In this document: piece by piece, positions 29,084-43,122 of the stretch
How positions within the stretch are numbered: the first letter of the stretch is position 1
Layout: each line of letters opens with the position of its first letter
Sequence record: NC_100327.1
Strand: one strand, 5' to 3'
From: a phage
Length of the DNA: 64,000 nt
Notes under the pieces: model-generated
What the model was told of the DNA's origin: nothing
Database searches by the model: none
Seen by the model: only the letters and a program-made list of their open reading frames with translations
Translations under genes and position numbers: made by a program

Positions 29084-32000
29084 TTAGTCGTGAGACTCGT
29101 TCCAAGGTCCCTGGAAGCTAGAGTTTGAACGACTTACTATCACAGTAGGACAGGAAATTGTGACACCTGTCACGCTCGACGTTGACCACGGTGTGTAAAT
29201 CTCGATAACAATGTCTATAGTTTGTTCACCAAGACCTGTTATCCCTACCGCACACATGCCGTTGTTGTCGTTAAAATACTTCTTGCCAGCAAGGATCTGA
29301 TGACCAGCTATCCATGCATTCAGTTGGGAGCTGGCAAGAGTACCATTCAGTTTAAAGAAGAATGTTACGTTCTTACCCTGACCTGAAACGTTATCTACGT
29401 ATCTCCACCTCCAACGGCAAACCCTTTGCTGGGAGTTATATACTGGAGCACAATCCCCGTAAGTCCTGTGTGCAACAATTGCACCTTCGAACTGGTTAGC
29501 ACGGATAACAGAAGCTTCTACACGACCACGGAAGGTACCTCCGGTTGCATCTATGGTGCCCCTAAAGCTACCATTATTGGCATAAACATCCCCACGGAAG
29601 GTACCACTAGTGGCGTTAACTGCCCCTGTGAAGTTACCAGAACTAGCGTTGATGTTGCCTTTCACCCACACATCCATAAATTGGGCGTGCCCGTTCTTGT
29701 TAATATACCAACCGTATTTATGGTACCCGTTGCCATCGTAGTTGTTTGACGAAATTTCTTGTGCAATCTTAGCAGAGGAGATCGTGCCATTCTCTATAAA
29801 AGCGTCTTTCAAGAACGCTTGGTTGTTCTTGATTGCGAAAGCAAGGGTTGCTGTTCCATTGCCAGGGTTGTATACCGCAAAATTGTTTGCGCTAACCATG
29901 AAGTAGGATTGAACTTGGCCTCCAGACCCTTCCATCCCCAACTGAATACCTGCAACATATTTATTCCCTGCGGAGTCTACCTGTATTTTTGTGCCCCATT
30001 GAGCATTTACTTTACCCTCTAAGTCGGTTACAGCCTTAGATGTTGTAGCTACTGCAGCCCTGATCTCAGACACATCCCCAACATCATCAATGATCTCCTG
30101 CTTAGCAACAGCAAGTTCTTGACGAATAGCTGACGCTGTGCCGTTGATAAGGTCCACAGTGGCTTTATTGGTATCGGAAATTGTAGCATCCAGCGCTGTT
30201 TTTGTGGAGGTCAGTTTTCCATCCAAAGCATCAATCGCTTGCTTGTTGGTAGAAATCTCCCCACGTGCAGAAGTTATCTGCTCTGACAGTGCAGATGTTT
30301 TCTGATTCAACAAGTCAGTGGTGGCCTTGTTGGTATTGGCAATCAAGGTGTTGAGGTCAGTTTTTGCGGTAGTTATCTTGCCGTCAAGGGTGGTATAGTT
30401 TTTAGATACCGTCGCGTTTGTCTGACTAATCTTTTGATCCAGAGTTTCAGATGTCCTGTTCAAAAGATCCACAGTGGCCTGGTTAGTGCTCAAGATGCTT
30501 GCGTCAAGTTCTGTTCTCTGAGTATTGATCTTACCATCCAGAGTTTTATCTCCGGCTAAATACCCGCTCTCAACTCCCTCTATCTGCTCTACCAGCTCAC
30601 CTTTGGCGGCAACCAATTTCTCATCTAAAGCCTCTGTCTTTTTGTTCAGAAGATCAGTAGTTGCTTTATTGGTTGTCTCAATCAGGGATGCCAATCTTCC
30701 ACTTTCAGTGTTCAGATCGTTGGTGAACTTGTTCTGTGCAGCAACAAGTTTCCTATCCAGCGCTGTGATATTGCCATTGACATCCTCAAACTTCTGAGTT
30801 GTCTCTGTAACTACCGCACCTATTCTGTCTCCAAGTTGCTGGAATGCCTCATCTACCCTACCATCCATGTACCTGTTAAGTTCTGTGACACGATTTTCAA
30901 CCTCTTCAATAGAGGAATCCAAAGTGCTCATCAACTCTTTATAAGTTTCTGTCTTTTTGAATTCAGCATCTATCTGAGGCATCAAATCCTCAATAGAGGT
31001 GTAGCAGCGTGCAGCGCATTCTACAAACTGAGAACTACCAAAAGCGTTTGTGGTTCGAATATACCAATAATAAACCTTATCGTTCTGCAGACCTTCAGAT
31101 GTCCAAGTTGAACCAACACCCATACGGGTGGCGTTTGAAGTAACGGTTGCATCACTGGTGTCGGGCAACCTTGTCATACCGGATGTCCAAAAGTCATACT
31201 GGGTGCTAACACTTGCTAAATCCCTACTATGCGGAATCAAGGTGATAGCAAAGTATCCTTGCTTAACCTCTACAGAAACCGGAGCTTCAGGTGCCTGAAT
31301 GTTAAACTCACAATACGCTTCTGGAGATACACCACCTTTATAAGATGTTGCAACAACAGTGGCTGTGTAGGAACCTTTAGTCAGACCTTCAACACGGACA
31401 AACTGCTCAACTGTCTGTGCTGTCCAAACAATCTCTCCGTTCTTTCTTACCTGCACAATATTTTGAGCGTAAGTCCCAACGTTGTCCCAGGCCAAAACAC
31501 CGTGAGTTACTTCCCCAGCTTGGAGAACGGAGTATCTGAAGTTTTGCGGCTGAGCTACACCGGACGGGGATATCGGAATATCTACATCGCCGGAATCCGG
31601 AAGTTGCCCTGTGGCATCATTCCACTCTTTAGCATCTTGACGAAGTTTTACCTTGACACCGCCCTTTTTGGTGAACTCCCATTCAAGAACCCTCATTTCT
31701 TGGCCCACGATACCAATACTTGGGAGGTCCATTGTAACATAACGGCCAGGCTTAAATTTAAAACCTCGCATATTGCAGGTGACTTCAATAATCCTGCCAG
31801 CTCTAGCACGTCTTAGGAAGATTGCAGAAACACGCTGAGCTTGATAAGGACTGGTAACAAAGCGATAATCTATATCGATTATCTTTCTTTCTCCATCCTT
31901 CTCTACCCACTCTGGGACAAATACTGATGGAAAATCTGTTTCAGAATACCCTTTAGTCGGACTGGTGAATCTGCCAGTTATTGTGTTGGATCTTTTGTCA

Positions 32001-32923
32001 AACGAGGCTTCCGGATAGATCTTGACCTCACCACAGACACAGTCCTCACTCAGTGTCATTGTTGCCGGACCATAATATGCACCTACCAGCAGTCCATACT
32101 TACCAGCTACATAGCTGAGATCTGCACCACAAGCTTTCAGCATTTCTGCCATAATACTTGCTGGGGCCTCATCCATATCGAACTCGCCATTAATGGTGTA
32201 ACGGCGCTCACTGGTTCCGTCTGCGTTTTTTACCGCCTCGTCGCATATGTTGGCAGCCTCCTTGAAGGACTCCCAGTTGATGGTTTCGTCAGGACATTTA
32301 AGGTACGTTCTTAAATAGTCTAGGATCACCAAGGCAGCGTTATTGGTGTACACCTCTTTACTGATACGAGGATCATAGCATTTTTTACCAATCTTGACGA
32401 GTGTAACGTTTGGCAACCCAAAAGGAAACTTGTTAGGGTCAAACCTGAAGCTGGCACGTAGCCAACTGATCCCTCTACCTATCATGTCAGGTGACCATGA
32501 TGGGCAGTGTGTACCCATGAAAGGATCAGATGTTTTTCTGTCGTTATGTAGCTCCCACGATACCAGATCTCCATACGAGGAAATAGGATTACCGTCGATA
32601 AGTATATCTTCTATACCTTCCAGAGGGTGATTGGCAAGAACAATAGCACAATGGAGGGTTCTGTCGCTATCCTGCTCCAAAAACGCAAGCAATCCAGATG
32701 TGCGTGTCTTTCCATACACTACAGAGCAAGGTGCAGCAGAAGATCTGAGAAGCTTTTGTCTATCTTGCTGACTTCTGTAAGATTTGTTGCCCTCAAAAAT
32801 CTTATCCAAAGTTCTGGTGGTCACAGTGTTCAGGCTGTCAGCCAGAGCTGCCTTGGATGCGTTCCAGTCATAACTTGAAGATCTTGCAGAAGCAACGATG
32901 TTATCAATCATTGCAATTGGCAT
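29084..32923 (-). CDS. large tail fibre or tail tip protein with FN3-like domains, long coiled-coil repeat region and Gly-rich C-terminal repeats
   Basis: 1279 aa; ~35-aa degenerate repeats (D..K..T..T.LD..I..TN.AT.DLLN) spanning roughly residues 640-960; C-terminal GTFRG repeats. Confidence 0.55.
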   Translation of the reverse strand: MPIAMIDNIVASARSSSYDWNASKAALADSLNTVTTRTLDKIFEGNKSYRSQQDRQKLLRSSAAPCSVVYGKTRTSGLLAFLEQDSDRTLHCAIVLANHPLEGIEDILIDGNPISSYGDLVSWELHNDRKTSDPFMGTHCPSWSPDMIGRGISWLRASFRFDPNKFPFGLPNVTLVKIGKKCYDPRISKEVYTNNAALVILDYLRTYLKCPDETINWESFKEAANICDEAVKNADGTSERRYTINGEFDMDEAPASIMAEMLKACGADLSYVAGKYGLLVGAYYGPATMTLSEDCVCGEVKIYPEASFDKRSNTITGRFTSPTKGYSETDFPSVFVPEWVEKDGERKIIDIDYRFVTSPYQAQRVSAIFLRRARAGRIIEVTCNMRGFKFKPGRYVTMDLPSIGIVGQEMRVLEWEFTKKGGVKVKLRQDAKEWNDATGQLPDSGDVDIPISPSGVAQPQNFRYSVLQAGEVTHGVLAWDNVGTYAQNIVQVRKNGEIVWTAQTVEQFVRVEGLTKGSYTATVVATSYKGGVSPEAYCEFNIQAPEAPVSVEVKQGYFAITLIPHSRDLASVSTQYDFWTSGMTRLPDTSDATVTSNATRMGVGSTWTSEGLQNDKVYYWYIRTTNAFGSSQFVECAARCYTSIEDLMPQIDAEFKKTETYKELMSTLDSSIEEVENRVTELNRYMDGRVDEAFQQLGDRIGAVVTETTQKFEDVNGNITALDRKLVAAQNKFTNDLNTESGRLASLIETTNKATTDLLNKKTEALDEKLVAAKGELVEQIEGVESGYLAGDKTLDGKINTQRTELDASILSTNQATVDLLNRTSETLDQKISQTNATVSKNYTTLDGKITTAKTDLNTLIANTNKATTDLLNQKTSALSEQITSARGEISTNKQAIDALDGKLTSTKTALDATISDTNKATVDLINGTASAIRQELAVAKQEIIDDVGDVSEIRAAVATTSKAVTDLEGKVNAQWGTKIQVDSAGNKYVAGIQLGMEGSGGQVQSYFMVSANNFAVYNPGNGTATLAFAIKNNQAFLKDAFIENGTISSAKIAQEISSNNYDGNGYHKYGWYINKNGHAQFMDVWVKGNINASSGNFTGAVNATSGTFRGDVYANNGSFRGTIDATGGTFRGRVEASVIRANQFEGAIVAHRTYGDCAPVYNSQQRVCRWRWRYVDNVSGQGKNVTFFFKLNGTLASSQLNAWIAGHQILAGKKYFNDNNGMCAVGITGLGEQTIDIVIEIYTPWSTSSVTGVTISCPTVIVSRSNSSFQGPWNESHD

Positions 32924-33360
32924 TAATACCTCCAGACATCAACAATGATAGAATCTTTCATGTCGAACATAAAGACCCCTTTATCACCTTTCGCCCAAAT
33001 CTGGTTGTTCCAGAACACACCAGCGGTGAGCCCGTTCAGACCTTCGAAAATAACAATATCGCCACGCTGAACCTGTTTAGGAGTATCCAGTCGAGTCATA
33101 AAGAGATCAAAAATAGTAGGCAGGTGTGTAGTTTTGAAACGAAGCATGCACCATCTTTTGCTTTCCAACTCTGTTTTATACGTTCCTTCGAAGTTGGAAA
33201 GAAAATCTGTTCCGTATTGGGCATCAACACACTTAGCCGCAAAGGTGCAACAATCGTGGAATCCCCATTCAAAAGGTATGGTGGCCTCTTCGTCAAACAC
33301 TTTCCACAATCTTTCTTGCCAATCCACTAAACGAGGGTGTGTGCTCATTAAACCTCCCAA
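32923..33360 (-). CDS. tail-associated protein, possible Cys/His peptidase
   Basis: 145 aa with FHDCC motif; adjacent to large fibre gene; weak inference. Confidence 0.3.
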   Translation of the reverse strand: MGGLMSTHPRLVDWQERLWKVFDEEATIPFEWGFHDCCTFAAKCVDAQYGTDFLSNFEGTYKTELESKRWCMLRFKTTHLPTIFDLFMTRLDTPKQVQRGDIVIFEGLNGLTAGVFWNNQIWAKGDKGVFMFDMKDSIIVDVWRY

Positions 33361-33914
33361 ATGATCGGGCGGCTCGCCACCTGATCCACATATTTAAAAA
33401 ATCTGTCATTATCGTTTCTTGAGCTGTGGCTTTCCTCCGTGTACCGATAAGGAAAACCTCTTAACCAACTGTTGAAGATGGAAGAGATGGATATGGACAA
33501 AGCACTATTCTCACCTGTCTGAATAGCCATATCTGTTATAAGGCCGTCAAACAAGCCATTAGTTGTGACAGGTAGACCATTCTCCATAGCGGTAATGTAC
33601 AACGTGGCACGACAACCAGAATACTCCGTCTTCAGCAGATCACCCACATACTTAGGATCAAACCCGTTCAATGTTGCTACCACAGATCCGAAGTTGGTGG
33701 CATCTTTCTCAGACACAGCAGTTAATGTTGCTGATCCCCCTATCCCTATAAAATGTTGCCCCTCAATTACTACAACACCAGTGCCTGAGCACACCCTGAC
33801 AGTTCCTGTCGGTAGCTCCAGCTTTGCAGCAATTAAGATCTCAACACCATCAAGCTCCAGCTTTTCAAGAAATAAATTATCTAATGGCGCTCTGATCATC
33901 TTAGAAATCCTCAA
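33348..33914 (-). CDS. minor tail protein
   Basis: 188-aa ORF in structural operon. Confidence 0.35.
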   Translation of the reverse strand: MRISKMIRAPLDNLFLEKLELDGVEILIAAKLELPTGTVRVCSGTGVVVIEGQHFIGIGGSATLTAVSEKDATNFGSVVATLNGFDPKYVGDLLKTEYSGCRATLYITAMENGLPVTTNGLFDGLITDMAIQTGENSALSISISSIFNSWLRGFPYRYTEESHSSRNDNDRFFKYVDQVASRPIIWEV

Positions 33915-34491
33915 AGAAGTTGATAACTATATTATCCCCTTTTTGCATAGCATCGACTTTTTGCTTAATTTTATAAATATCTCTGATATGAAACCTACCC
34001 TTCGGGGATTGAGTTATTATCTTCATAGTGTCCCCTGCGGCAATAGGTTTTCTAAGTCTTGGAGATATGCTTATAACAGCAGACCCAACACCATCGCTAC
34101 GCACTGGAGCTGTTACCACTTTCAATTCATCATTGACAGATATTTTATCCCCAGCTCTGGCTATGTCTCTGTTTGGCTCCCACCCAACCGTCTTCAAAAA
34201 ATCGTCGTTACCAGTAGGCCCAAGGGCGATTGGCTCATTAGCTGTAACTGAGTGACCGTAAGTTTTAATAAGAAAGATGTTTCCATCTTTATACACCTGA
34301 TCAACAAAGCTCTTAAGCTCTAACAACTGTGACTCGCTGATATTAGAGACCGTCAAAGTGCCTTTCCAATTAGGTGTGGCATAGGTTACTTTTTGCGTTT
34401 TACCTGTAAACGGACTTTTAAACGTAACAATATCTGCCAGCAGCTCCAATCTAATATCTGGAAGGTATCTAGGCCTTTCCCATAAAAACAT
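33901..34491 (-). CDS. minor tail protein
   Basis: 196-aa ORF in structural operon. Confidence 0.35.
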   Translation of the reverse strand: MFLWERPRYLPDIRLELLADIVTFKSPFTGKTQKVTYATPNWKGTLTVSNISESQLLELKSFVDQVYKDGNIFLIKTYGHSVTANEPIALGPTGNDDFLKTVGWEPNRDIARAGDKISVNDELKVVTAPVRSDGVGSAVISISPRLRKPIAAGDTMKIITQSPKGRFHIRDIYKIKQKVDAMQKGDNIVINFFEDF

Positions 34492-34552
34492 TGTGCCTCC
34501 GGGTTAAACAATCATGATAGTTATTTTACCAGATTTTGAGTTAATACGCAAT

Positions 34553-34583
34553 ACAAACAAAAAGCCCCCGCCGAAGCGAGGGC
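34553..34583 (-). terminator. rho-independent terminator
   Basis: GCCCTCGC-TTCG-GCGGGGGC hairpin on minus RNA followed by UUUUUGUUUG, downstream of stop at 34591. Confidence 0.55.
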
Positions 34584-34590
34584 AAAACAG

Positions 34591-37500
34591 TTACTTCAAT
34601 TTCTCTTGCAACCCAGTAACAACCTCTGTCAATTTTTTAACCTGCTCCTCAAGGGCGGTTATTTTATCATCCTGTTCCCTGCAAACCTGGACAAGCAAGC
34701 CTGTTACAGCTGCGTAATCCACGCTGTAGAATCTTTCCTCTGTTATCAAAGGAGTTCCATCTTGATCAGGGTTTGGGATTTCCTTTCTTTGCACGAAAGA
34801 GCTAACCGCTTCCGGCAGAGCTTCAAGCACTTCTTGTGCTATAACACCTGCATAAGGCATACCGTTCTCTTTAAGAGTGTAAGTATAACCCTTCATCTTC
34901 CGGATAGCTTCTAACGCATCAGGAATAACAGCTATGTTATCTTTCAGGTCTCTGTCAGAACTCTGATTGACAGATGTGCAATTCACAGCGCCGTTTACAG
35001 AAAGATATCTTGATTTATCCGGCAAGGTACCGCAATGCCATACCCAATTTGATTGAGACTCGTCAAGAACCTTAAACTCTAACACGTTTGGACGATCTCC
35101 TGTGCTGCCGTTACCCCAATAATACATATGGGCGGCATTAGCAGGCATGTTGCCACCGTTATTAGTAACATGGCTTCCAGAAATATACACCTTTAACTCT
35201 GGGGTTGGTATTTCCCCTTCTGGGGTTGTTCCTCCATACCTGAAGCTAACACCATTACCACCTGTTTGGGTCCACGGGCCCCAAGTGAAGACCTGTTTCA
35301 CCATATTCCCATAACGTGTGAATCTATCGCCATGGTAGGTAATATACTCTTGAACACACCCATTACCGTTATTGGCGTTATTTTGCAACACAATAAGTGT
35401 TCCGGCCTCATTTACGGGATAATGACGATCATATGTTGCATCATTATTTGCAGGCTGATGGTAAATACCTTCCCACAATCCGTGATAGGTGTTAAGGTCT
35501 GAAGAACCAAGACCTTGACCCCTGTGTTGCATGGCCTTATTCCAGGGATGGTGATTACCACCTTCTATAGACCTGGTGTATAAGTTACTTTGTCTGCCAG
35601 CAATCTGGAAAGCGTAGTTTCCCGAGAATCCTACAGATAAACCTCCTACAACCATGGTGTCTTGTGGACCGTTAACATTACCAGCCATTATTTTTGACGG
35701 GTTATTAGGCCCGAACTGGTTGTTCCAGTCTCCACCAGTATGACATACAAAACCACCTGGGGCTGAAAAAGTACCATCCTTATTGAAGTTGTAGAATCTA
35801 TGAGCTGTGCCCACAACATCTCGAACAATAACTTGACCAGCCTCTGGAGTAGACCTGAACTCTGCTTGACCTTTAAGGCCAGCACCATTACCGCATTTAG
35901 AGGTAAACGTGCCGTTAGTTAGATCCTCTGTTCCATCTGATGCACACTGGAATCCTGCGTTAGAGAATAGCGCCTTTCTAGGACCACTGTAGCACAAATA
36001 GTCAAAACCGTCAGCCCATAGCTCTACTTTAGGCATGTTCATTTTGCTCATTATCGCATAGCGTTCAGCAGTGCCTACATAGTGCCACTGTGTGCCGCCG
36101 CCAGTGTAGAACCCAGAGGTACCTTTGAAGTCAACAATAGGTCTGGTGTTGGTATTGTTATCTCCGAGAACAGCCAGATTTAAATCTGCTGACTGGAGAG
36201 GTGCAACGAACTTAACACCGTCCTGATTGTCTGTTACAGAGCCAACCTGGTAATCTTGCTCCCTGGTAAACACCTCGACAACATTTCTACTTGCGTATAT
36301 GCTGACAGGGAAAGCACGCGCCTCTGCATAGAAAGCAACATATTCTTGTTTACCCCTTGTTGGAGCAACCATCCCAAGAAGTGCTTTTTCATTCTGGTAG
36401 AAATTTACTACCCCGTAGAAAGAGTCTCCTCTGTCTGTCCAACCACCAGTTCTATAGTGACACTGTAAGGTAGCACAGTTCATAGGGTCATTTCCAGATG
36501 ACGATCTGGTAACTATGGTAATATCAGTACCAGTTGCTGGAGCATAGTACGGATCTGTTCTAACGATGATCGGGTAGTATTTCCCATCTTCCATCCCTGC
36601 GGTTCTTGGCAGTGTTAAGAAGTCTTTCACACCTGCTGCTATAGGAACTTTGAACAGATTCTGAGCATCTGCTAGAGTTGTAGCCCCGGTGCCACCTGCG
36701 GCTTGAGGTAGAGGTTCCCACTTGGCCTTCCGGTTGTTATAAACACCCCATTCCAGAGTGCCGTTACCGGATTCGTCCATCCCGCCATCCCAGATAACCA
36801 TCTTGGCGGCTTTCTTAGATCCCCAGAAGCCTCTTTCTGCTCCTGAACTACGTATCCACTCTCCAAGTCCCCAGTTTGTCAGCTGACCAGTAAGATCCCC
36901 AACCTGCATGTATTTAGGGCAGTCTAATACACCGTCTTCGCGGAAACCCAAATATCTATGAGTTTCAGATCCTTTTGCACCTTTGTGGAGGTGGATTGTC
37001 AACCAAGCCTTATTGTCGTTTCTTACCTCAGAGTAGATCCTATATCCATGCTCAAGGACACCGTCAGCGCTGTATTTGTCCCCGTTAACAATACCGGATG
37101 CTGACTTAACATCAGCAGAACTTTGAGACAGGTAAAGGTGCCCGAAGGTAGGAGAATTTCTAGACCCGAGACCGATGTGCGATCTAAAGGTATCATCGTT
37201 ACGAGGTCTAACCATCGGCTGCCATGCAGTCCACTGATTTGTGTTGGCCTGATAGGTTCTCAAATACCAAACATCTACGTTAGAGAATGGGTAGTATTCC
37301 TGACGACAACCTGTACCGCCGTTAGCATTGTTCTGCCAAACAATCAAGTGACCAGCACCAGAACCTGCAGGGTAACCATTTGCCTCAGTTGCATAAGCAG
37401 TCATCGGCTGGTAGTATACACCATCCTGATTACCAGTCAAGTTATTGATATTGAAATTTGGCTCAAGGGCTGCACGTTGCTTATAGAAAGCACCGATATT

Positions 37501-38403
37501 GATACGGACTCCAGCGGCATCTCTAGCCCCTGTGCCGCCTTGCTCTATAGCAAGAGGTTGCCACGAAGCTGTTTGTTGGTTCCACATACCCCAACGGCCT
37601 GTTGCATCAAGCTGCAAGTACCCTGCCGTATTTAAATCATCTCCAGCACGGATAACTGTTCTTGTTGGGTTGTTTGCCTCTAGGCGTTTAAATTCATCAC
37701 GAAGTGCTATTCTTTTCGTTGTTGCTACACCGTTGGTTACTGCAATGGTGTACATGGCTCCGGTGGTAGCGCCACGGAAAATACCATCAACAGTTGTAGT
37801 ATCACGGCGAGATACCACACCGTTCAGAAATTTTTCACCAGCTGCTACAGAAGGGTAGTTGGTGGTTCTTCCCTCTTCAATAACTGCAGGGCCAACAAAG
37901 TTATCAAGGTGAATAACATCGCCTACGGTGTGCACTGTACCAAAATCTACACGCTGTGCAAGTGCTTTAGCATCGTTAGCTGTCTGAACAGTAACATCCA
38001 TTACATCCTGGACAGACTGCCCTTCGGCTGTCATGATCATAGATGCGCCAATGGTAGATTCCAGCTCCTCCCTTAAGGACGGGTCAGTATATACCATCCA
38101 TGCAGCGTCAGTAATCCCACCATCAGCGTACGGTGAAGACAGTGCAGGAACAGTGTGCGGAAATTCGCCTTTCCAACGCAGGTAGAGGTCTTCCTCTTCG
38201 AAGTAGGCAAAATCCATTGGGCCGTTTAACTTACCACCTTCCTTAAAGGAGATTACATGAGAAACAGTCCCATCCACATGGACAACATCGCCAATTTTTA
38301 CACGACGGGTCAGGTCTGGTTGCTGAACAACCAGGTAATCATCCTCTGTCACTGCGGTAGTGGCAGGAAGAGATTCAATTCTGACAACTTTAATATCAGC
38401 CAT
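34591..38403 (-). CDS. long tail fibre with C-terminal intramolecular chaperone (peptidase S74-like autoproteolytic domain)
   Basis: 1270 aa; C-terminal SDRDLKDNIAVIPDALEAIRKMKGYTY... matches the conserved Ser-Lys region of self-cleaving fibre chaperone domains; N-terminal ~90 aa paralogous to 41038-41706. Confidence 0.65.
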   Translation of the reverse strand: MADIKVVRIESLPATTAVTEDDYLVVQQPDLTRRVKIGDVVHVDGTVSHVISFKEGGKLNGPMDFAYFEEEDLYLRWKGEFPHTVPALSSPYADGGITDAAWMVYTDPSLREELESTIGASMIMTAEGQSVQDVMDVTVQTANDAKALAQRVDFGTVHTVGDVIHLDNFVGPAVIEEGRTTNYPSVAAGEKFLNGVVSRRDTTTVDGIFRGATTGAMYTIAVTNGVATTKRIALRDEFKRLEANNPTRTVIRAGDDLNTAGYLQLDATGRWGMWNQQTASWQPLAIEQGGTGARDAAGVRINIGAFYKQRAALEPNFNINNLTGNQDGVYYQPMTAYATEANGYPAGSGAGHLIVWQNNANGGTGCRQEYYPFSNVDVWYLRTYQANTNQWTAWQPMVRPRNDDTFRSHIGLGSRNSPTFGHLYLSQSSADVKSASGIVNGDKYSADGVLEHGYRIYSEVRNDNKAWLTIHLHKGAKGSETHRYLGFREDGVLDCPKYMQVGDLTGQLTNWGLGEWIRSSGAERGFWGSKKAAKMVIWDGGMDESGNGTLEWGVYNNRKAKWEPLPQAAGGTGATTLADAQNLFKVPIAAGVKDFLTLPRTAGMEDGKYYPIIVRTDPYYAPATGTDITIVTRSSSGNDPMNCATLQCHYRTGGWTDRGDSFYGVVNFYQNEKALLGMVAPTRGKQEYVAFYAEARAFPVSIYASRNVVEVFTREQDYQVGSVTDNQDGVKFVAPLQSADLNLAVLGDNNTNTRPIVDFKGTSGFYTGGGTQWHYVGTAERYAIMSKMNMPKVELWADGFDYLCYSGPRKALFSNAGFQCASDGTEDLTNGTFTSKCGNGAGLKGQAEFRSTPEAGQVIVRDVVGTAHRFYNFNKDGTFSAPGGFVCHTGGDWNNQFGPNNPSKIMAGNVNGPQDTMVVGGLSVGFSGNYAFQIAGRQSNLYTRSIEGGNHHPWNKAMQHRGQGLGSSDLNTYHGLWEGIYHQPANNDATYDRHYPVNEAGTLIVLQNNANNGNGCVQEYITYHGDRFTRYGNMVKQVFTWGPWTQTGGNGVSFRYGGTTPEGEIPTPELKVYISGSHVTNNGGNMPANAAHMYYWGNGSTGDRPNVLEFKVLDESQSNWVWHCGTLPDKSRYLSVNGAVNCTSVNQSSDRDLKDNIAVIPDALEAIRKMKGYTYTLKENGMPYAGVIAQEVLEALPEAVSSFVQRKEIPNPDQDGTPLITEERFYSVDYAAVTGLLVQVCREQDDKITALEEQVKKLTEVVTGLQEKLK

Positions 38404-38438
38404 TCTTTCTCCTGAAAGGGGGCAAACAGCCCCCTATG

Positions 38439-41036
38439 TTAAAGGTACAATCCACGGTATTGAGCATAAAGGCCCAGACCGCGAAGGATTTCGCCAGAGT
38501 GATAGCCAACCGGATCAGAAACTGCCCAGCAGCCGTTTAAAATATTATCCCCATTAATGAAGTGGTGCTTTTGCAGTAGCTTCACACAGGCTTCTACAAC
38601 AATATCTATTTGAGGTATTGTCTCTGAATACCCGCACAGACCTAGCCAGCAGCAACCTGCAAGCCATTCACCTACCACCCACATCCTGTCTCCTCTGTCC
38701 TGATAAGAATATCCCCCAGAGGTGTTAAAGTCTGTAGGCAGATTTCCTGAATGAGATGACTGGAATCTGTTGAGGAACCATGCCCATTTCTGGCAGAACA
38801 GGAATAGTCTTTCATCAACAGGTTCTTTATGTTTCTTGAGCTCATATATTGTGCGGCACGCAGCAACAAAAGATCTTGACTGGAGCTTAGAGTTATCTAC
38901 CATCTCCCACCAACCAGTCAACCCTTCATTGCCTCTTTGCCATACATAACGTGAGGCAACTGGACCCTCTGTCTTAAATGTATTATTATACCAGACTTGA
39001 GCGTCATACAGAAAGCCTATTGTATTTGACAATCTATGGCGATCTATGTTTTCTGCACCCATGCAGTAGACTGCTGGGTATTGCATGCCAGGGTAGGGCC
39101 AATTTGGCTTTTCCTCTAAGAGATAGTTTTCCTTATCTATCACCTTTCCGGCAGGGAACACACCCGGTGTGTGCCTGTATGCACCTTGCTTGTAGTTTCT
39201 GACATAGCAATCTCCAACCTTAGCGGTTGATTCTGTCTTGCTTGCCATCCATACACTAAACCAGATTAGATAAGCATCCCTATCTGCAATATAGAATTGC
39301 GGCAGCGTGTTGACGCAATATAGATCAAACAAGCCATTACCTATCTGCCTGTCGCTTAGGCTGAAATCCACAGAGGTGAGCCCCTTAGGATTAGCAAAGA
39401 AAGGTTTAATCTCTTCTTCGGTGTGATGAGGTTGTGTCGGATCTAGTTTGAAATCTCCTAGAGTAAGAGTTTCTGTTATCCATTGTCCATTAGTGGCATA
39501 TAGATCAGCATACCATAACCACCTGTCTTTGTCAAGAAATTTGACCCTTACCATCTCATCATCTGATCGATAAGTTACTGAGTTTAAAGAAATCTCTCTT
39601 CCAAAATTGAAAGTTACTTTACCTCTTGCTATATTACAACGGGTGAAGTTGTCAGAGTGGTTGTAAATGTCGGTATCATACTGCATACTGACACTAGCGC
39701 CACCGCTCACGGCAATGTTTTCCTCTTTAGGTAAGAGATACGGATTACCGTCTTTACCAACCACCTCTACGAAATCGGTAACCTTGGCAACTATTTCTGT
39801 TACCTCTGCCCCTCCAAAAGGAACCCCTATCCTGTACTGTTTTTTGTTATTGTTGCCATCATTAAGGATGAAATGTGGCTGGAACAGAACCCCTTCTCCT
39901 CCGAAATTCATAACAATTTCAGCATCTCTGCCTATTTTGTATGTAGTCCCTTTTTGGATTATTTCGCAAGGCTGGCGTGCGTTCATTCTAAAATTGATAT
40001 ACCCGTCACTGTCCCTGCTCATGACAGGAACTGTTCCTGCAACAAGACAAGTACCATCTGTAAACGGTGCCTTAATCAACGTGGTCTTTCTAAACAGTTT
40101 GTCGTAGGCGTTTATATCACTGAAATTAAGCAACTTGTTGTAAGACTGTTCAAACGCGGTGTAATACTTTTCCTCACCTGTTAAGGTGTAGAGTTGATAA
40201 CAAGCGTCACACCACATCTCTTCCCCGTCCAACTCTGGGGCTTGATTATCTGCAACCACGTTTATAGGATTTACAATTACAGGCGATCCTGCAGGTATCA
40301 CCGATCCACCCTGCTCTTGGGGTAATCTTACACAATAGGTCACCTTGTGGCTGCCTGTAACACCCTTATCTTGTAATTGGATTGTGCCGAACTCTACAGA
40401 CGTATGACCACTGTCGGCTATGCTACCGTTAGCCCAATAGCGGTTACCATCCCATGCTATATACCACTCAACCCACCAACTTAATCCAGATGTTGTCCAA
40501 TCTGGGTTAGCATCTGTGCCGCCGTAAACATCAGCGTCTACAGTGTTTCTTCCTAACACACCGTTATATGCTTGGAAGGCCTTGTCCAGGTATTCTCCCC
40601 ATGTCGGAGATCCAGCTGGGATTTTTCCTCTACCGTTAGTAAAAGACACCACCACATCTTTAAACCCACCATGTGATGGGACCCCGTCTGTGGATAGAGG
40701 GTAGTGGGACAATCTTTGCATTTTACTTTCTACAGCATATGCGCCCAGAAGATGACTATTGTAAGCTTCCCAAGCATCTTTTGCCCTATCCAGATAGAAA
40801 TCGCTTTTCGATGCCCTGTATGCTTCAATGTATCCCAGAATCAACACAGCTTGGGACTCATGCATTGCCCAATCATTATTTATCTTATTACCTGCCCACC
40901 CTGCAGCTATAAGACCATCAGGGTTTACTAGCTTATTTTGTGTAGGGGTGTTGGTAATACCTGTGTTGTTATCGAGGCACTTCCTGTGCCCCTCAATCAT
41001 CTGAAATACGTTATCAATGTTGTGTTGAATACGCAT
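38439..41036 (-). CDS. tailspike-like protein, putative polysaccharide depolymerase
   Basis: 865 aa, aromatic-rich, no fibre-like repeats; between fibre-adaptor gene and long fibre gene. Confidence 0.4.
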   Translation of the reverse strand: MRIQHNIDNVFQMIEGHRKCLDNNTGITNTPTQNKLVNPDGLIAAGWAGNKINNDWAMHESQAVLILGYIEAYRASKSDFYLDRAKDAWEAYNSHLLGAYAVESKMQRLSHYPLSTDGVPSHGGFKDVVVSFTNGRGKIPAGSPTWGEYLDKAFQAYNGVLGRNTVDADVYGGTDANPDWTTSGLSWWVEWYIAWDGNRYWANGSIADSGHTSVEFGTIQLQDKGVTGSHKVTYCVRLPQEQGGSVIPAGSPVIVNPINVVADNQAPELDGEEMWCDACYQLYTLTGEEKYYTAFEQSYNKLLNFSDINAYDKLFRKTTLIKAPFTDGTCLVAGTVPVMSRDSDGYINFRMNARQPCEIIQKGTTYKIGRDAEIVMNFGGEGVLFQPHFILNDGNNNKKQYRIGVPFGGAEVTEIVAKVTDFVEVVGKDGNPYLLPKEENIAVSGGASVSMQYDTDIYNHSDNFTRCNIARGKVTFNFGREISLNSVTYRSDDEMVRVKFLDKDRWLWYADLYATNGQWITETLTLGDFKLDPTQPHHTEEEIKPFFANPKGLTSVDFSLSDRQIGNGLFDLYCVNTLPQFYIADRDAYLIWFSVWMASKTESTAKVGDCYVRNYKQGAYRHTPGVFPAGKVIDKENYLLEEKPNWPYPGMQYPAVYCMGAENIDRHRLSNTIGFLYDAQVWYNNTFKTEGPVASRYVWQRGNEGLTGWWEMVDNSKLQSRSFVAACRTIYELKKHKEPVDERLFLFCQKWAWFLNRFQSSHSGNLPTDFNTSGGYSYQDRGDRMWVVGEWLAGCCWLGLCGYSETIPQIDIVVEACVKLLQKHHFINGDNILNGCWAVSDPVGYHSGEILRGLGLYAQYRGLYL

Positions 41037-41037
41037 C

Positions 41038-41706
41038 TTAGATAGCTCCTGCGATAATCAGTGCCCCGTACCAAGTTAACCCGTTGTCGTAGGTTTCCAA
41101 CTTGAAAATGTCTGTTGCACCAGCTGTAAATGTTAGGATAGGATCTCTTCCGTAGGACCATTTAACATTATCAGGCCAATAGACTTTGTTGCCGCCAGAG
41201 GTCTGAGTAATGCATACGGTTATAGTTCTCGCCACCCCTTCAAGACCTTCTGTTTGATTTTCAAAAGAGATTGTGGTATTTGAAGTTAGTCGAACCTTAA
41301 AGGTATCCGCAACTTCAAGATCCATATCAAGCTGACCACCGATAGATCCGTAATCAACTATTCTGCCAGAAGAAGTTGCAGCAAGCTCACCAAAAACAGA
41401 CCAGGCATTTGCAGACACGCCCCCAGCACCCTCTACAGTGGAGTCTGGTAGGATTATTTTAGGATAATCCCCGTTCCACGTGTAGTAGCGCTTAGTCTCT
41501 GGGTCATAAGCAAAGTCCTTCTTGCTCTTAAGATAACCACCCTCTGTGAAATAGACTATCTTAGTAATACTAAGATCGTTGACAACATCGTCAATCTTAG
41601 CCTTTCTTGTCCCATCAGTCTGGTTGACAACCAAGAAGTCATCACTCAGGACTGTTTCTGCATCTTCAAGATCTGGAATTGGTATTGTAGGATAAGCTAC
41701 AGCCAT
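41038..41706 (-). CDS. tail fibre/spike adaptor protein sharing N-terminal attachment domain with the long tail fibre
   Basis: 222 aa; N-terminal LSDDFLVVNQTDGTRKAKIDDVV...FTEGG...DFAY aligned to N-terminus of 34591-38403. Confidence 0.5.
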   Translation of the reverse strand: MAVAYPTIPIPDLEDAETVLSDDFLVVNQTDGTRKAKIDDVVNDLSITKIVYFTEGGYLKSKKDFAYDPETKRYYTWNGDYPKIILPDSTVEGAGGVSANAWSVFGELAATSSGRIVDYGSIGGQLDMDLEVADTFKVRLTSNTTISFENQTEGLEGVARTITVCITQTSGGNKVYWPDNVKWSYGRDPILTFTAGATDIFKLETYDNGLTWYGALIIAGAI

Positions 41707-41715
41707 GATTTCTCC

Positions 41716-42432
41716 TTAGTTAACATCAATAGCACGACCAGACTGGTTGGCAATAGCCTCATCATTGGAGGTAGCAATAACACCAGAGTATTCGCGCTCA
41801 TCTGGAGCAAGCGTCCAGGTATTGCGGTTAATGGTTTGTTCTGCCTCAGTCATCAGCAGATCTTTATCCTGAGTCAACAGAGAGCCTACAGGGATCGGGT
41901 TTTCCATCTCAGGACCAGCATACTGGTTCCACCATGTGGCATCTCCGGTTCTAGGTAATCTGAAGTTGATCAGGTAGTACAGTTTATTAGCCCACTTAAT
42001 CCAACCCTCATCATCACAGAGAGAGGTTGTCCCAGAATCAGGTTGTGGGTAGGTGAACTGATCAAGACCTACGAAAGCCAGCCTTACAATCTCGTTCTCT
42101 TTGGTAACAACCTCAAAGAACGCTTGGTATGTTCTCGATCTTCGGTCCATGGTAGACTGGAAGTTTATGATGTTTAGCACATCCGGCTCTTGTCTTGCCA
42201 CTTCCATAATCTTGTTATCAAGAACAGTCTTCATGACCTTCTTACTGAGAAAGTCCATATAAGGGAAGCCAAACAGTTCGTCAAAGTACCAGCTCCCCTT
42301 CCACGTATTAAACCTCATCCACAAGCGCTGGCGCAGACTTACCTGGTTTGAATCTATCAACTCAAGACCTTTGTCTATCGCCAAATCGCCTGTCTGTGGG
42401 TCCATCAATATATCACTATAAAGCGTAGCCAT
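41716..42432 (-). CDS. baseplate protein
   Basis: 238-aa ORF between spike and fibre-adaptor genes; positional. Confidence 0.35.
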   Translation of the reverse strand: MATLYSDILMDPQTGDLAIDKGLELIDSNQVSLRQRLWMRFNTWKGSWYFDELFGFPYMDFLSKKVMKTVLDNKIMEVARQEPDVLNIINFQSTMDRRSRTYQAFFEVVTKENEIVRLAFVGLDQFTYPQPDSGTTSLCDDEGWIKWANKLYYLINFRLPRTGDATWWNQYAGPEMENPIPVGSLLTQDKDLLMTEAEQTINRNTWTLAPDEREYSGVIATSNDEAIANQSGRAIDVN

Positions 42433-42444
42433 GAAAGCCCTCTA

Positions 42445-43122
42445 TTAGTGCGGTCCACTTGTCTCGCCATCAGGGCAAGAGTGGGTATGACCTTTATATT
42501 CTGCATAGAATGAATCCAAATCCACGCCAGCAGCAGTTATAATTCTACCAGATGGGTCTATTGTAGCACCATTCATTCTGATATTCCCATCCACAGCAGC
42601 TCGCAAATTGGCAGCCCCGTTAGTGAAAGAAAACTCCCCGCTGCTGTCGCACCGTAATGTCCCACCAGGTGTTTGAAGCTCAAAATCGCCAGAAGGTGTC
42701 AGTTTAAAATAAACCCTATCATTCCATAACTCTACATTATCAGGATCGATCTGTAAGGCGTTTGAGTCTGAATGAACAGAGGTGATTGCCCACCCTGGAA
42801 ACAGGCCGTGAGTTTGTTGATCGTCGTTATTGTTTTCATTTCTCTCTGAAAACTGCAATCCTACAACATCTCCAGCCTTAATAGGGAGTGTTAACCTTGC
42901 CTTTCCGCTGTTTGCAGACATCACCTGAATTGGAACGTCATAGATAAGAGGGTATCTCTCCACATCTCCGTCATCAAACGTAGTTTCAGCTATTGGCTGC
43001 ACGGCTGCAGAAGGTATACTGTAGTCAACACTGACAACTCTGGCCCTGATACTGGTGTGGTAGTCCCTCATTATTTTTTCTATAAAGGATCTTACAGCAG
43101 CATCTTTCCTATTTATTGCCAT
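42445..43122 (-). CDS. baseplate central spike (gpV/gp5-like) with metal-binding tip
   Basis: 225 aa; C-terminal GHTHSCPDGETSGPH resembles His/Cys apex motif of P2 gpV-type spikes. Confidence 0.5.
   Translation of the reverse strand: MAINRKDAAVRSFIEKIMRDYHTSIRARVVSVDYSIPSAAVQPIAETTFDDGDVERYPLIYDVPIQVMSANSGKARLTLPIKAGDVVGLQFSERNENNNDDQQTHGLFPGWAITSVHSDSNALQIDPDNVELWNDRVYFKLTPSGDFELQTPGGTLRCDSSGEFSFTNGAANLRAAVDGNIRMNGATIDPSGRIITAAGVDLDSFYAEYKGHTHSCPDGETSGPH

Follow-up and report, generated by a model that had tools for sequence, protein, structure and literature searches.

Three genes in a 64,000-nucleotide stretch of phage DNA (record NC_100327.1; the whole stretch is referred to here as the window) probably form a receptor-binding cassette, in which a 222-aa adaptor would mount an anchorless 865-aa protein through a C-terminal dock domain while sharing its anchor type with a 1270-aa long tail fibre. 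The adaptor role, which the initial annotation had proposed, is well supported but indirectly, by comparative rather than physical evidence: the dock is a near-obligate neighbour of the 865-aa protein, and the adaptor N-terminus is swapped in a lineage-specific manner. We infer the physical contact between dock and enzyme, the attachment site at the baseplate, the stoichiometry, and the catalysis and its substrate.

The phage is a Vequintavirus, an rV5-like myophage of E. coli: the locus shares 99.5% nucleotide identity with genomes of this group. The rV5 counterparts of the 222-, 865- and 1270-aa proteins are gp43 (likewise 222 aa), gp42 and gp41, respectively. The ORF listing contains all three reading frames at the coordinates that the initial annotation had given them (Table 1), arranged on the minus strand in the order 222 aa, 865 aa, 1270 aa (5′ to 3′). 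Only 1 nt separates the adaptor stop codon from the start of the 865-aa gene, with a ribosome-binding site lying within the last codons of the adaptor. Between the enzyme and fibre genes, a spacer of 35 nt includes a short hairpin that failed a terminator scan of the range 33800-42600. The top site of that scan is the hairpin directly downstream of the fibre gene, with an 8-bp stem containing 7 GC pairs and the tail TTTTTGTTTG; this terminator-like structure ends the transcription unit of all three genes. Mass spectrometry has detected gp41, gp42 and gp43 in rV5 virions (PMC3606486), and the 222-aa protein is thus not missing from virions, an absence that the initial annotation had named as telling against its proposal.

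Table 1. Features of the receptor-binding locus (coordinates within the window).
Feature	Coordinates	Strand	Basis
222-aa putative adaptor gene (anchor module plus dock domain), rV5 gp43 equivalent	41038..41706	-	ORF; phrog_7760 tail fibre protein, full length
Anchor module of adaptor, residues 1-105	41392..41706	-	N-terminal peptide plus Tail_spike_N
Putative dock domain of adaptor, residues about 116-222, predicted beta-sandwich	41041..41361	-	Structure model; conservation
865-aa anchorless glycosidase-like tail protein gene; rV5 gp42, phi92 gp141 equivalent	38439..41036	-	
Short GC hairpin GGGGGC-TGTTT-GCCCCC followed by TTT	38418..38434	-	Read from sequence
1270-aa long tail fibre gene, rV5 gp41 equivalent	34591..38403	-	ORF; phrog_6578 tail fibre protein, full length
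Anchor module of long fibre (residues 1-105), paralogue of the adaptor module	38089..38403	-	BLASTP, phmmer, PF18668 E 8e-10
C-terminal intramolecular chaperone (Peptidase_S74), fibre residues 1149-1270	34594..34959	-	PF13884; motif; PDB 6f45
Strong intrinsic-terminator-like hairpin directly 3′ of fibre gene	34564..34583	-	Sequence plus terminator scan

The N-termini of the fibre and the adaptor do align, as noted initially, with BLASTP matching fibre residues 7-105 to adaptor residues 8-105 (38% identity over 99 aa, E 3e-18). Searching a six-frame translation of the window with each N-terminus (phmmer) recovers the other protein as the sole match (E about 1e-17 to 1e-18); there is no third copy in the window by this search, the next matches having E > 0.1, and complete Vequintavirus genomes contain exactly two copies per record. 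In the adaptor, the module comprises a peptide at approximately residues 1-45 that carries the motif DDFLVVNQTDGTRKAKIDDVV and, at residues 51-105, a Tail_spike_N domain. This TSP1/Gp66-type N-terminal domain (PF18668) is above the Pfam gathering threshold of 25 bits in both proteins, scoring 39.0 bits in the fibre (residues 46-103) and 41.0 bits in the adaptor (residues 51-105).

Beyond this anchor the adaptor contains only a beta-sandwich of ~105 aa, and no receptor-binding or enzymatic domain was detected in it. The C-terminal segment has the motif Q-x-[ST]-G-x-N-K-V-x-W-P-D-N-V-K-W ... D-x-G-x-T-W-x-G, and the blocks of the structure model covering residues 121-220 have pLDDT values of 63-88, mostly about 85. 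It matches no Pfam family and has no convincing PDB match. It is conserved as the C-terminal part of the protein encoded upstream of each close enzyme homologue. We propose that it is the binding platform for the 865-aa protein, a proposal that is drawn from gene neighbourhoods in other genomes. A dock profile recovered 63 loci in viral contigs, 42 of which are close relatives (tblastn E <= 5e-12), one lacking a callable ORF. At 38 of the remaining 41 a homologue of the enzyme is the abutting downstream gene (hmmsearch E < 1e-100), the dock lying at the C-terminus of a protein of ~153-563 aa whose stop codon overlaps the enzyme start or is separated from it by a short gap (ORF-call offsets -47 to +171 nt). 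The reverse search gives the same picture, with a dock ORF immediately upstream at six of seven enzyme loci in bacterial genomes and in all three metagenome or prophage contexts; in the latter the enzymes are distant homologues (26-28% identity), and the upstream genes end in a dock (E 5e-21, 3e-21 and 1e-11) but have different N-termini. Among GenBank phages, 524 records contain the enzyme and 526 the dock; the genus counts of the two are nearly the same and their coordinates adjacent. In almost all lineages examined, the dock directly precedes a gp42 homologue, an adjacency that could reflect a functional rather than a physical coupling. More remote dock-like domains (loci L049-L069) form the C-termini of fibres or occupy internal positions, with no enzyme gene following, and the fold is thus not exclusively an enzyme dock.

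The part of the adaptor preceding the dock differs with lineage and virion type. In the Yersinia podophage phiR8-01 the tail-fibre slot contains a 269-aa protein composed of a Phage_T7_tail N-terminal domain and a dock, followed by a 929-aa enzyme homologue (28% identity, E 2e-99), and these are the only genes in the slot. At nine of 11 loci tested, representing about six adaptor architectures, the adaptor N-terminus is paralogous to that of another fibre in the same locus; the gene for this fibre usually follows the enzyme gene directly, and one such fibre also ends in S74. Loci in contigs of 145-148 kb, presumably from phi92- or phAPEC8-like phages, encode a 224-aa adaptor, a 929-aa enzyme, and then a fibre matching the adaptor N-terminus (E 2e-28).

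The initial description of the 865-aa protein as lacking an attachment domain and looking enzymatic is borne out in both respects, the second by modelling. It has no match to the anchor module (phmmer within the window), and most of 92 gp42-family representatives begin at their own N-terminus, aligning from residue 3-20 and sharing the motif ...EGH..FL..NTG.... Its structure model predicts an (alpha/alpha)6 barrel with beta-rich segments inserted into it, which by model places gp42 in the six-hairpin glycosidase superfamily fold; the models of the enzyme and the adaptor are both of only moderate confidence (pLDDT 64 and 65.5). Pfam gives no match for the 865-aa protein, with no glycoside-hydrolase family above threshold; sub-threshold GH76 matches are present in only two of 46 family members (best E 0.003), the phiR8-01 homologue reaches 24.3 bits against a glycoside-hydrolase cut-off of 25.9, and the family profile has a best E of 0.005 against the PDB. 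Seven acidic residues (E60, D270, E272, D342, D502, E732 and E849) are invariant in 12 lineages.

The term depolymerase, if taken to mean a beta-helix tailspike specific for capsule, is not supported. Classical capsule depolymerase tailspikes combine a trimeric right-handed beta-helix catalytic domain and an N-terminal anchor in one chain, and we rejected this assignment for gp42, which has a predicted alpha/alpha barrel with beta inserts and no anchor in the chain. The gp42 gene is 97-100% identical among the Vequintavirus records listed, and the receptor of a podophage with the adaptor-enzyme pair as its only fibre module is the LPS inner core. Capsule specificity is unsupported because of this fold, the gene conservation and the inner-core receptor, and a conserved glycan is the more likely putative substrate.

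The 1270-aa protein ends in a chaperone domain as had been reported, with PF13884 (Peptidase_S74) at residues 1149-1200 scoring 52.1 bits (E 8e-14) against a Pfam threshold of 22 bits, and PDB 6f45, a long tail fibre distal subunit, matching residues 1137-1263. The cleavage site of S74 domains has a Ser...Lys catalytic dyad in the motif S-D-x-x-x-K, as described for endosialidases, and S1149 and K1154 of the fibre fit this motif. Autocleavage is predicted at S1149-D-R-D-L-K1154, yielding a C-terminal fragment of 122 aa. The domain thus appears to be an ordinary member of the endosialidase-type family, above threshold and with the motif present, and has no unusual feature. BASEL phage annotations name the counterpart a lateral tail fibre, and a cryo-EM map of the Vequintavirus Bas54 has an S74-bearing fibre, presumably the gp41 homologue, on the baseplate wedge, with density for the S74 domain absent (PMC12143355).

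A probable assembly scheme can be drawn from these components. The adaptor and enzyme would be produced together, given the 1-nt stop/start gap and the ribosome-binding site inside the adaptor gene. The N-terminal ~105 residues of the adaptor would bind the baseplate or the fibre network, probably in trimeric form, and the C-terminal ~105-residue dock would hold the 865-aa protein, which has no virion-binding domain of its own. Because the long fibre carries a paralogous anchor module, adaptor and fibre may compete for, or fill equivalent copies of, one type of site. Folding of the fibre would be assisted by the S74 chaperone at its C-terminus, which afterwards cleaves itself off. As for the enzyme-like protein, its probable ligand is a conserved glycan of the envelope, not a variable capsule, and it perhaps cleaves this glycan as well.

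We considered whether the 222-aa protein could instead be a self-sufficient short fibre with its C-terminal beta-sandwich as a glycan-binding tip, the enzyme being merely co-regulated, since the two would act on one glycan, and reaching the virion by another route or loosely associated. This seems unlikely, as the enzyme is anchorless in most family representatives and yet is an rV5 virion component (PMC3606486), dock and enzyme co-occur nearly one to one with stop and start codons that overlap or abut in most lineages, and the adaptor and enzyme alone occupy the phiR8-01 fibre slot. Still less probable is that the shared N-terminus is simply left over from duplication of, or recombination between, adjacent fibre genes and carries no information on a common attachment site. 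Tail fibre genes often recombine and these two are 3 kb apart, but the module is a recognised attachment region, and since identity is just 38% the duplication must be old and the module maintained; a match between adaptor and fibre N-termini also recurs elsewhere with unrelated anchor sequences.

The small size of the 222-aa protein, its gene lying beside those of large tail proteins, and the vague name given to its counterpart by the BASEL annotators might also suit a protein that chaperones or scaffolds assembly of the enzyme or fibre, similar to tail fibre assembly proteins. We regard this as very improbable: the gene precedes its partner rather than following it, another gene in the locus is already annotated as a tail fibre chaperone, and the protein bears a bona fide tailspike N-terminal attachment module and is present, as gp43, in purified rV5 virions (PMC3606486).

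As an adaptor, the 222-aa protein is most readily compared with gp37 of K1-5, K1E and SP6, which carries the tailspikes gp46 and gp47. Adaptors of the K1-5 type are ~300 aa and have a virion-binding N-terminus but no receptor domain, and their enzymes are anchorless with conserved N-termini (PMC6872550). The 222-aa protein is likewise short with a virion-binding type of N-terminus, gp42 lacks an anchor of its own and is conserved N-terminally, and in the phiR8-01 version an N-terminal domain of T7 type occupies the same genomic slot; by analogy the adaptor-enzyme cassette would work as these systems do. It differs in that one partner is implied rather than two, that this partner is a predicted (alpha/alpha)6-barrel protein rather than a trimeric beta-helix or endosialidase tailspike, and that the adaptor gene is directly upstream of it, whereas in K1-5 some 4 kb separate gene 37 from genes 46 and 47. 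The dock has no detectable sequence relationship to gp37 (hhalign probability 0.5%; no BLASTP hit), and homology to T4gp10 domains D2/D3 was also not found.

The anchor itself belongs to the same Pfam family as those of the CBA120 (TSP1-4) and G7C (gp63.1/gp66) tailspikes, its best structural matches being the N-terminal parts of TSP1, TSP3, TSP4 and gp63.1, regions that published work links to binding of a T4gp10-like branching domain (PMC6872550). These phages similarly use several receptor-binding proteins with one attachment logic. There, however, the module is followed in the same chain by a beta-helix enzyme and binds T4gp10-like domains, whereas here one copy precedes only the small dock with the enzyme a separate polypeptide, and no T4gp10-like (Gp10-type) acceptor was detected by Pfam in 18 tail proteins of the window.

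The multivalent adsorption apparatus of phi92 (gp140-gp143) has an arrangement orthologous to this cassette. The Vequintavirus enzyme LL12 gp42 aligns with full-length phi92 gp141 (PMC7229145), which is entered as a glycosidase in a review table (PMC5380687), although the anchor-sharing fibre of the 145-148-kb, presumably phi92-/phAPEC8-like, contigs differs from the 1270-aa S74 fibre. A 2026 cryo-EM study of phi92 leaves fibres I and II unassigned or speculative and does not discuss gp141.

A broader reading, which we hold as possible rather than probable, is that the dock and the (alpha/alpha)6 protein constitute a previously unrecognised portable two-gene receptor-binding unit. It would pass between podophages, prophages and myophages of widely differing size by swapping only the N-terminal anchor of the small protein, would rely on a docking fold with no relation to the T4gp10-like domains found in every adaptor and branching system described, would target a conserved envelope glycan (LPS inner core or an N4-type glycan) rather than capsule, and might explain part of the unassigned fibre I/II density in phi92- and rV5-like baseplates.

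The broad host range of rV5-like and phi92-like phages is highly valued, and both BASEL 2021 and the 2026 phi92 study call the assignment of genes to fibres still unclear. The putative adaptor-enzyme pair offers a concrete assignment for the existing maps EMD-51868 and EMD-51869 and those of phi92, and it flags a widespread family of virion glycosidase-like proteins without a beta-helix fold. More than 500 phage genomes contain this two-gene unit, combined with different attachment modules, and the anchors exchanged in nature (Tail_spike_N type, T7 type and several others) mark the points at which the module can be cut and re-grafted, boundaries that are directly useful for engineering receptor-binding proteins across phage families.

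The 7.1-kb region is 99.5% identical to that of Escherichia phage vb_EcoM_bov10K2 (Vequintavirus) and 99% identical to those of BASEL phages such as RudolfGeigy (Vequintavirus), and every gene within it lies on the minus strand. In the direction of transcription, genes for the tape measure protein, tube initiator, a small virion structural protein, hub, and central spike are followed by those for a 238-aa baseplate protein, which matches phrog_120 (a baseplate wedge subunit family) over its N-terminal half, and then for the 222-aa, 865-aa, and 1270-aa proteins; a terminator, a Dit-like/J-like module, and wedge proteins with further fibres complete the order. The three genes, referred to here as the adaptor, enzyme, and long fibre genes, correspond by sizes and descriptions to rV5 gp43 (222 aa), gp42, and gp41 (1272 aa in rV5) (PMC3606486). 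The adaptor stop and enzyme start codons are one base apart (TAA-G-ATG) and an AGGAG lies within the last codons of the adaptor gene, ahead of the enzyme start, a spacing that implies coupled translation. The 35-nt spacer between the enzyme and long fibre genes contains a hairpin too weak for detection in a terminator scan, which could be an attenuator or RNA stability element. The downstream tail-tip genes form a siphovirus-style set beside the contractile-tail baseplate genes of this myophage. Eighteen unannotated GenBank records (MG0656xx, 'Campylobacter phage', host Campylobacter jejuni) are 96–97% identical to this region, and are likely mislabelled or contaminated.

Features of the adaptor-enzyme-fibre region and associated loci in the window
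Feature	Coordinates	Strand	Description
Adaptor	41038-41706	-	222 aa; anchor and dock
Enzyme	38439-41036	-	865 aa; glycosidase-like
Central beta domain of enzyme	39297-39599	-	residues ~480-580; ...YRSD...D.D.W.WY...QP.H...YCVN.LP
Spacer hairpin	38418-38434	-	GC-rich; GGGGGC TGTTT GCCCCC, then TTT
Long fibre	34591-38403	-	1270 aa; internal duplications
Terminator-like hairpin	34583-34564	-	strong; directly after long fibre gene
Tail-tip set	29084-34491	-	distal-tail-protein-like 196-aa protein, 188-aa tail protein, DUF6950 protein, 1279-aa lambda J-like central fibre (Phage_Tail_Tip and Ig_J domains)
Fibre protein with deacetylase-type module	24718-26790	-	690 aa; residues 99-673 homologous to module in enzyme fusions

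The initial annotation had aligned the N-termini of the long fibre and the adaptor, and this observation is confirmed: residues 7–105 of the former and 8–105 of the latter share 38% identity (BLASTP, E 3e-18). When either N-terminus is compared with the six-frame translation of the whole 64-kb window the sole match is the other protein. Complete Vequintavirus genomes carry exactly two copies of the module per record, as do records of the related GAP31/SSE121 group. Both copies of this anchor score above the Pfam threshold for PF18668 (Tail_spike_N), and match by sequence the N-terminal regions of solved tailspikes including CBA120 TSP1, TSP3, and TSP4 and G7C gp63.1; the CBA120 and G7C tailspike N-termini belong to the same family as the anchor. 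The common stretch has two parts, an extreme N-terminal peptide of ~45 residues, unplaced in the monomer model (pLDDT < 50), followed by the Tail_spike_N domain.

The long fibre ends, as had been proposed, in a chaperone domain. Pfam places Peptidase_S74 at residues 1149–1200, and the Ser/Lys motif SDRDLK begins at residue 1149, predicting release of a 122-aa fragment. In a cryo-EM study of Bas54, a Vequintavirus, a fibre bearing an S74 domain was fitted on the baseplate wedge, with the S74 domain itself lacking density (PMC12143355); because none of the other tail proteins scanned in the window has an S74 domain, the Bas54 fibre is presumably the homologue of the long fibre. A GGTGA motif is present at residues 289 and 570 of the long fibre, and an element L-I-V-x-Q-N-N-A-N-x-G-x-G-C-x-Q-E-Y at residues ~351 and ~1001, the latter suggesting that a knob-like domain is present twice. 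In LL12, a close relative, the gp41 allele is without the S74 chaperone domain (PMC7229145), and the BASEL study reports allelic variation in the three largest fibre genes, which together indicate that the distal part of the long fibre can be exchanged and that the anchor and the adaptor-enzyme pair are constant.

The protein encoded between these two had been described as enzymatic-looking and devoid of an attachment domain. Comparison of the N-terminal anchors with the window's six-frame translation finds no anchor-like region in it, and most full-length family members align from their own residue 3–20, so that the family as a whole lacks an attachment domain. Exhaustive scanning of 1.84 billion representative proteins with HMMER yields only 92 related clusters, and the window's member has no Pfam match and no PDB sequence match. 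Word-index searches recovered very few relatives (6, 4, and 13), giving shallow alignments and hence lower model confidence; the AlphaFold2 model, which rests on six sequences, has a pLDDT of 64, with the helical hairpins mostly at 70–90. In the predicted fold, helical segments from the N-terminal, middle, and C-terminal parts of the chain make up an (alpha/alpha)6 barrel, with beta-rich insertions between them. Seven acidic residues (E60, D270, E272, D342, D502, E732, and E849) are invariant in twelve lineages of the family, as are several Arg, Tyr, and Trp residues. The label 'enzymatic-looking' is thus justified at the level of the predicted fold, and the protein is not a classical beta-helix depolymerase.

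Assignment to a particular enzyme family was attempted with Pfam scans of the enzyme and of 46 family members and with a family-profile search of the PDB, and gave sub-threshold matches only, every one of them to an (alpha/alpha)6 enzyme. Two of the 46 members have weak GH76 matches in Pfam, a Yersinia phage homologue scores 24.3 bits against GH76 (cut-off 25.9 bits), and the best PDB matches of the family profile (best E 0.005) are to GH76, cellobiose 2-epimerase, and a deposit named 'six-hairpin glycosidase'. The central beta domain recurs as the C-terminal portion of a separate 502-aa fibre on a phiEa21-4-like contig (locus L004, 7749–9257; phrog_23426; P0096, E 1e-8), and it looks like a mobile module, possibly glycan-binding.

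The C-terminal part of the adaptor, termed the dock, is predicted to be a beta-sandwich (pLDDT mostly ~85 over residues 121–220) with the signature Q-G-T-G-x-N-K-V-x-W-P-x-N-[VI]-K-W ... D-x-G-x-T-W-x-G, and its distribution closely follows that of the enzyme. We inspected the contexts of the three most distant enzyme homologues (26–28% identity), and in all three the directly upstream gene ends in a homologue of adaptor residues ~120–221 (E 3e-21, 5e-21, and 1e-11), with the rest of the upstream protein unrelated. These are a 153-aa protein on a 73-kb contig, which carries genes for Gp38-type adhesins and a 1493-aa long tail fibre as well; a 244-aa protein on a 43-kb contig taken to be related to Erwinia phage phiEa21-4; and a 473-aa SPRY-containing protein whose gene adjoins that of an integrase in Burkholderia vietnamiensis, in what is probably a prophage. 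The relationship to phiEa21-4 is suggested by the pairing of a 244-aa adaptor with a 1169-aa enzyme on 84-kb contigs too, and by the presence of the enzyme family in phiEa21-4.

A dock profile identified 63 loci in viral contigs, 42 of them close relatives (tblastn E <= 5e-12), one of which lacks a callable ORF. At all 41 remaining loci the dock lies 0–9 residues from the C-terminus of a protein of ~153 to 563 aa, and at 38 of these the next gene, overlapping or a short distance on, encodes an enzyme homologue (hmmsearch E < 1e-100), with ORF-call offsets of -47 to +171 nt, mostly -1 or -4. Conversely, of seven enzyme homologues encoded by bacteria (Escherichia, Pseudescherichia, Brenneria, Pseudomonas, Acinetobacter, and a Bacillota MAG), six have a dock-ending ORF directly upstream. 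Of 50,697 GenBank phage records, 524 contain the enzyme and 526 the dock, with nearly equal counts for each host genus (enzyme/dock, for example: Escherichia 242/239, Salmonella 101/101, Vibrio 62/58, Erwinia 33/33) and adjoining coordinates wherever both are listed. Remote dock relatives are internal in proteins of 684–841 aa at loci L050, L051, L053, L055, and L061, ~380–387 residues ahead of the C-terminus, and are followed by unrelated genes (~460–740 aa); the dock fold therefore exists also outside the enzyme-coupled context.

The region ahead of the dock varies by lineage and fits the virion type, most clearly in one podophage. In the T7-like Yersinia podophage phiR8-01, the tail-fibre slot between the internal virion proteins and holin is occupied by a 269-aa protein consisting of a Pfam Phage_T7_tail N-terminal domain and a dock, followed by a gene for a 929-aa enzyme homologue (28% identity, E 2e-99). 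At nine of 11 tested loci, representing about six adaptor architectures, the N-terminal part of the adaptor is paralogous to the N-terminus of another fibre at the same locus, whose gene is usually immediately 3′ of the enzyme gene. On 145–148 kb contigs, taken by size and gene content to be phi92- or phAPEC8-like phages, this fibre of at least 715 aa carries a Tail_spike_N of its own and matches the N-terminus of the adaptor at E 2e-28, and on the 73-kb contig with the 153-aa adaptor it is the 1493-aa protein, which ends in Peptidase_S74 (E 1e-10), repeating the window's three-gene layout with an unrelated anchor. The recurrent pattern is therefore an anchor joined to a dock, an anchorless enzyme, and the same anchor joined to a fibre, an arrangement that agrees with the proposal in the initial annotation.

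Other readings of the adaptor and enzyme were considered. The BASEL label 'sialidase domain protein' for the adaptor is rejected, as a sialidase catalytic propeller would require a far larger domain than the dock and the Foldseek matches to sialidases are negligible, covering just 26–62 columns with E > 6; the protein combines an attachment module with a small beta-sandwich. Comparison of the dock with the K1-5 adaptor for homology was negative. We also looked for direct fusions of dock and enzyme, but the N-terminal extensions (280–380 aa) of family representatives P0042, P0053, and P0049 are dock-like by eye only, with an hhalign probability of 1.1% against the dock profile and a non-significant best hmmsearch match for P0049 (full-sequence E 0.0012, domain E 0.042). 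The metagenomic P0083 (293 aa) has the reverse order, with the first ~180 enzyme residues preceding a dock (E 8e-21); this may reflect fusion of a truncated enzyme with the adaptor that follows, or an artefact of assembly.

A depolymerase directed at a variable capsule is disfavoured by three observations. The enzyme is 97–100% identical across the listed Vequintavirus records, and the BASEL study considered conserved glycans to be the probable targets of the conserved parts of this locus. In phiR8-01 the adaptor-enzyme pair is the sole fibre module, and that phage uses the LPS inner core as receptor, infecting only strains without O-antigen and outer core (PMC6950378). Finally, in two natural fusions, P0037 (1557 aa) and P0042 (1795 aa), the (alpha/alpha)6 region is followed by an N4 gp65-type NCTSP/deacetylase module, which has homology to the 690-aa fibre protein of the window (E 1e-156 and 6e-136) and is linked in the literature to the N4 glycan receptor, hinting that both activities act on the same glycan.

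Taken together, the adaptor reading of the 222-aa protein is supported by strong, if indirect, comparative evidence, in that dock-enzyme coupling and anchor swapping recur independently, and we consider it probable that the adaptor and enzyme are partners. Virion proteomics of rV5 detected gp41, gp42, and gp43 (PMC3606486), so that the adaptor's counterpart is a virion component; its absence from virions would, according to the initial annotation, have refuted the adaptor idea. In the proposed arrangement the N-terminal module of the adaptor would attach at a site that also accepts the long fibre, possibly at two equivalent or neighbouring sites per baseplate sector, and its dock would hold the glycosidase-like protein through direct contact, while the long fibre would mature by S74 autocleavage. 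The comparisons show the homologies, architecture, fold class, dock-enzyme coupling, and anchor exchange; the contact, acceptor site, stoichiometry, catalysis, and substrate are inferred.

Functionally this resembles the adaptor system of K1-5/K1E/SP6 gp37, but the cassette differs from known adaptor-mounted receptor-binding enzymes in both its docking domain and the fold of its cargo. In the searchable literature its Vequintavirus genes appear only under the label of putative tail fibres, and our search found no paper on a six-hairpin glycosidase carried by a tail fibre. In phi92, gp141 is listed as 'glycosidase' in a review table (PMC5380687) and gp140 is given only as fibre-like with uncharacterised function; gp141 is absent from the 2026 phi92 structure paper, and both proteins may have been discussed earlier in Schwarzer et al. 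2012. The boundary between anchor and dock is a naturally validated cut point for the engineering of receptor-binding proteins, and the cassette provides a concrete, testable assignment for unresolved fibres in the rV5-like and phi92-like phages.
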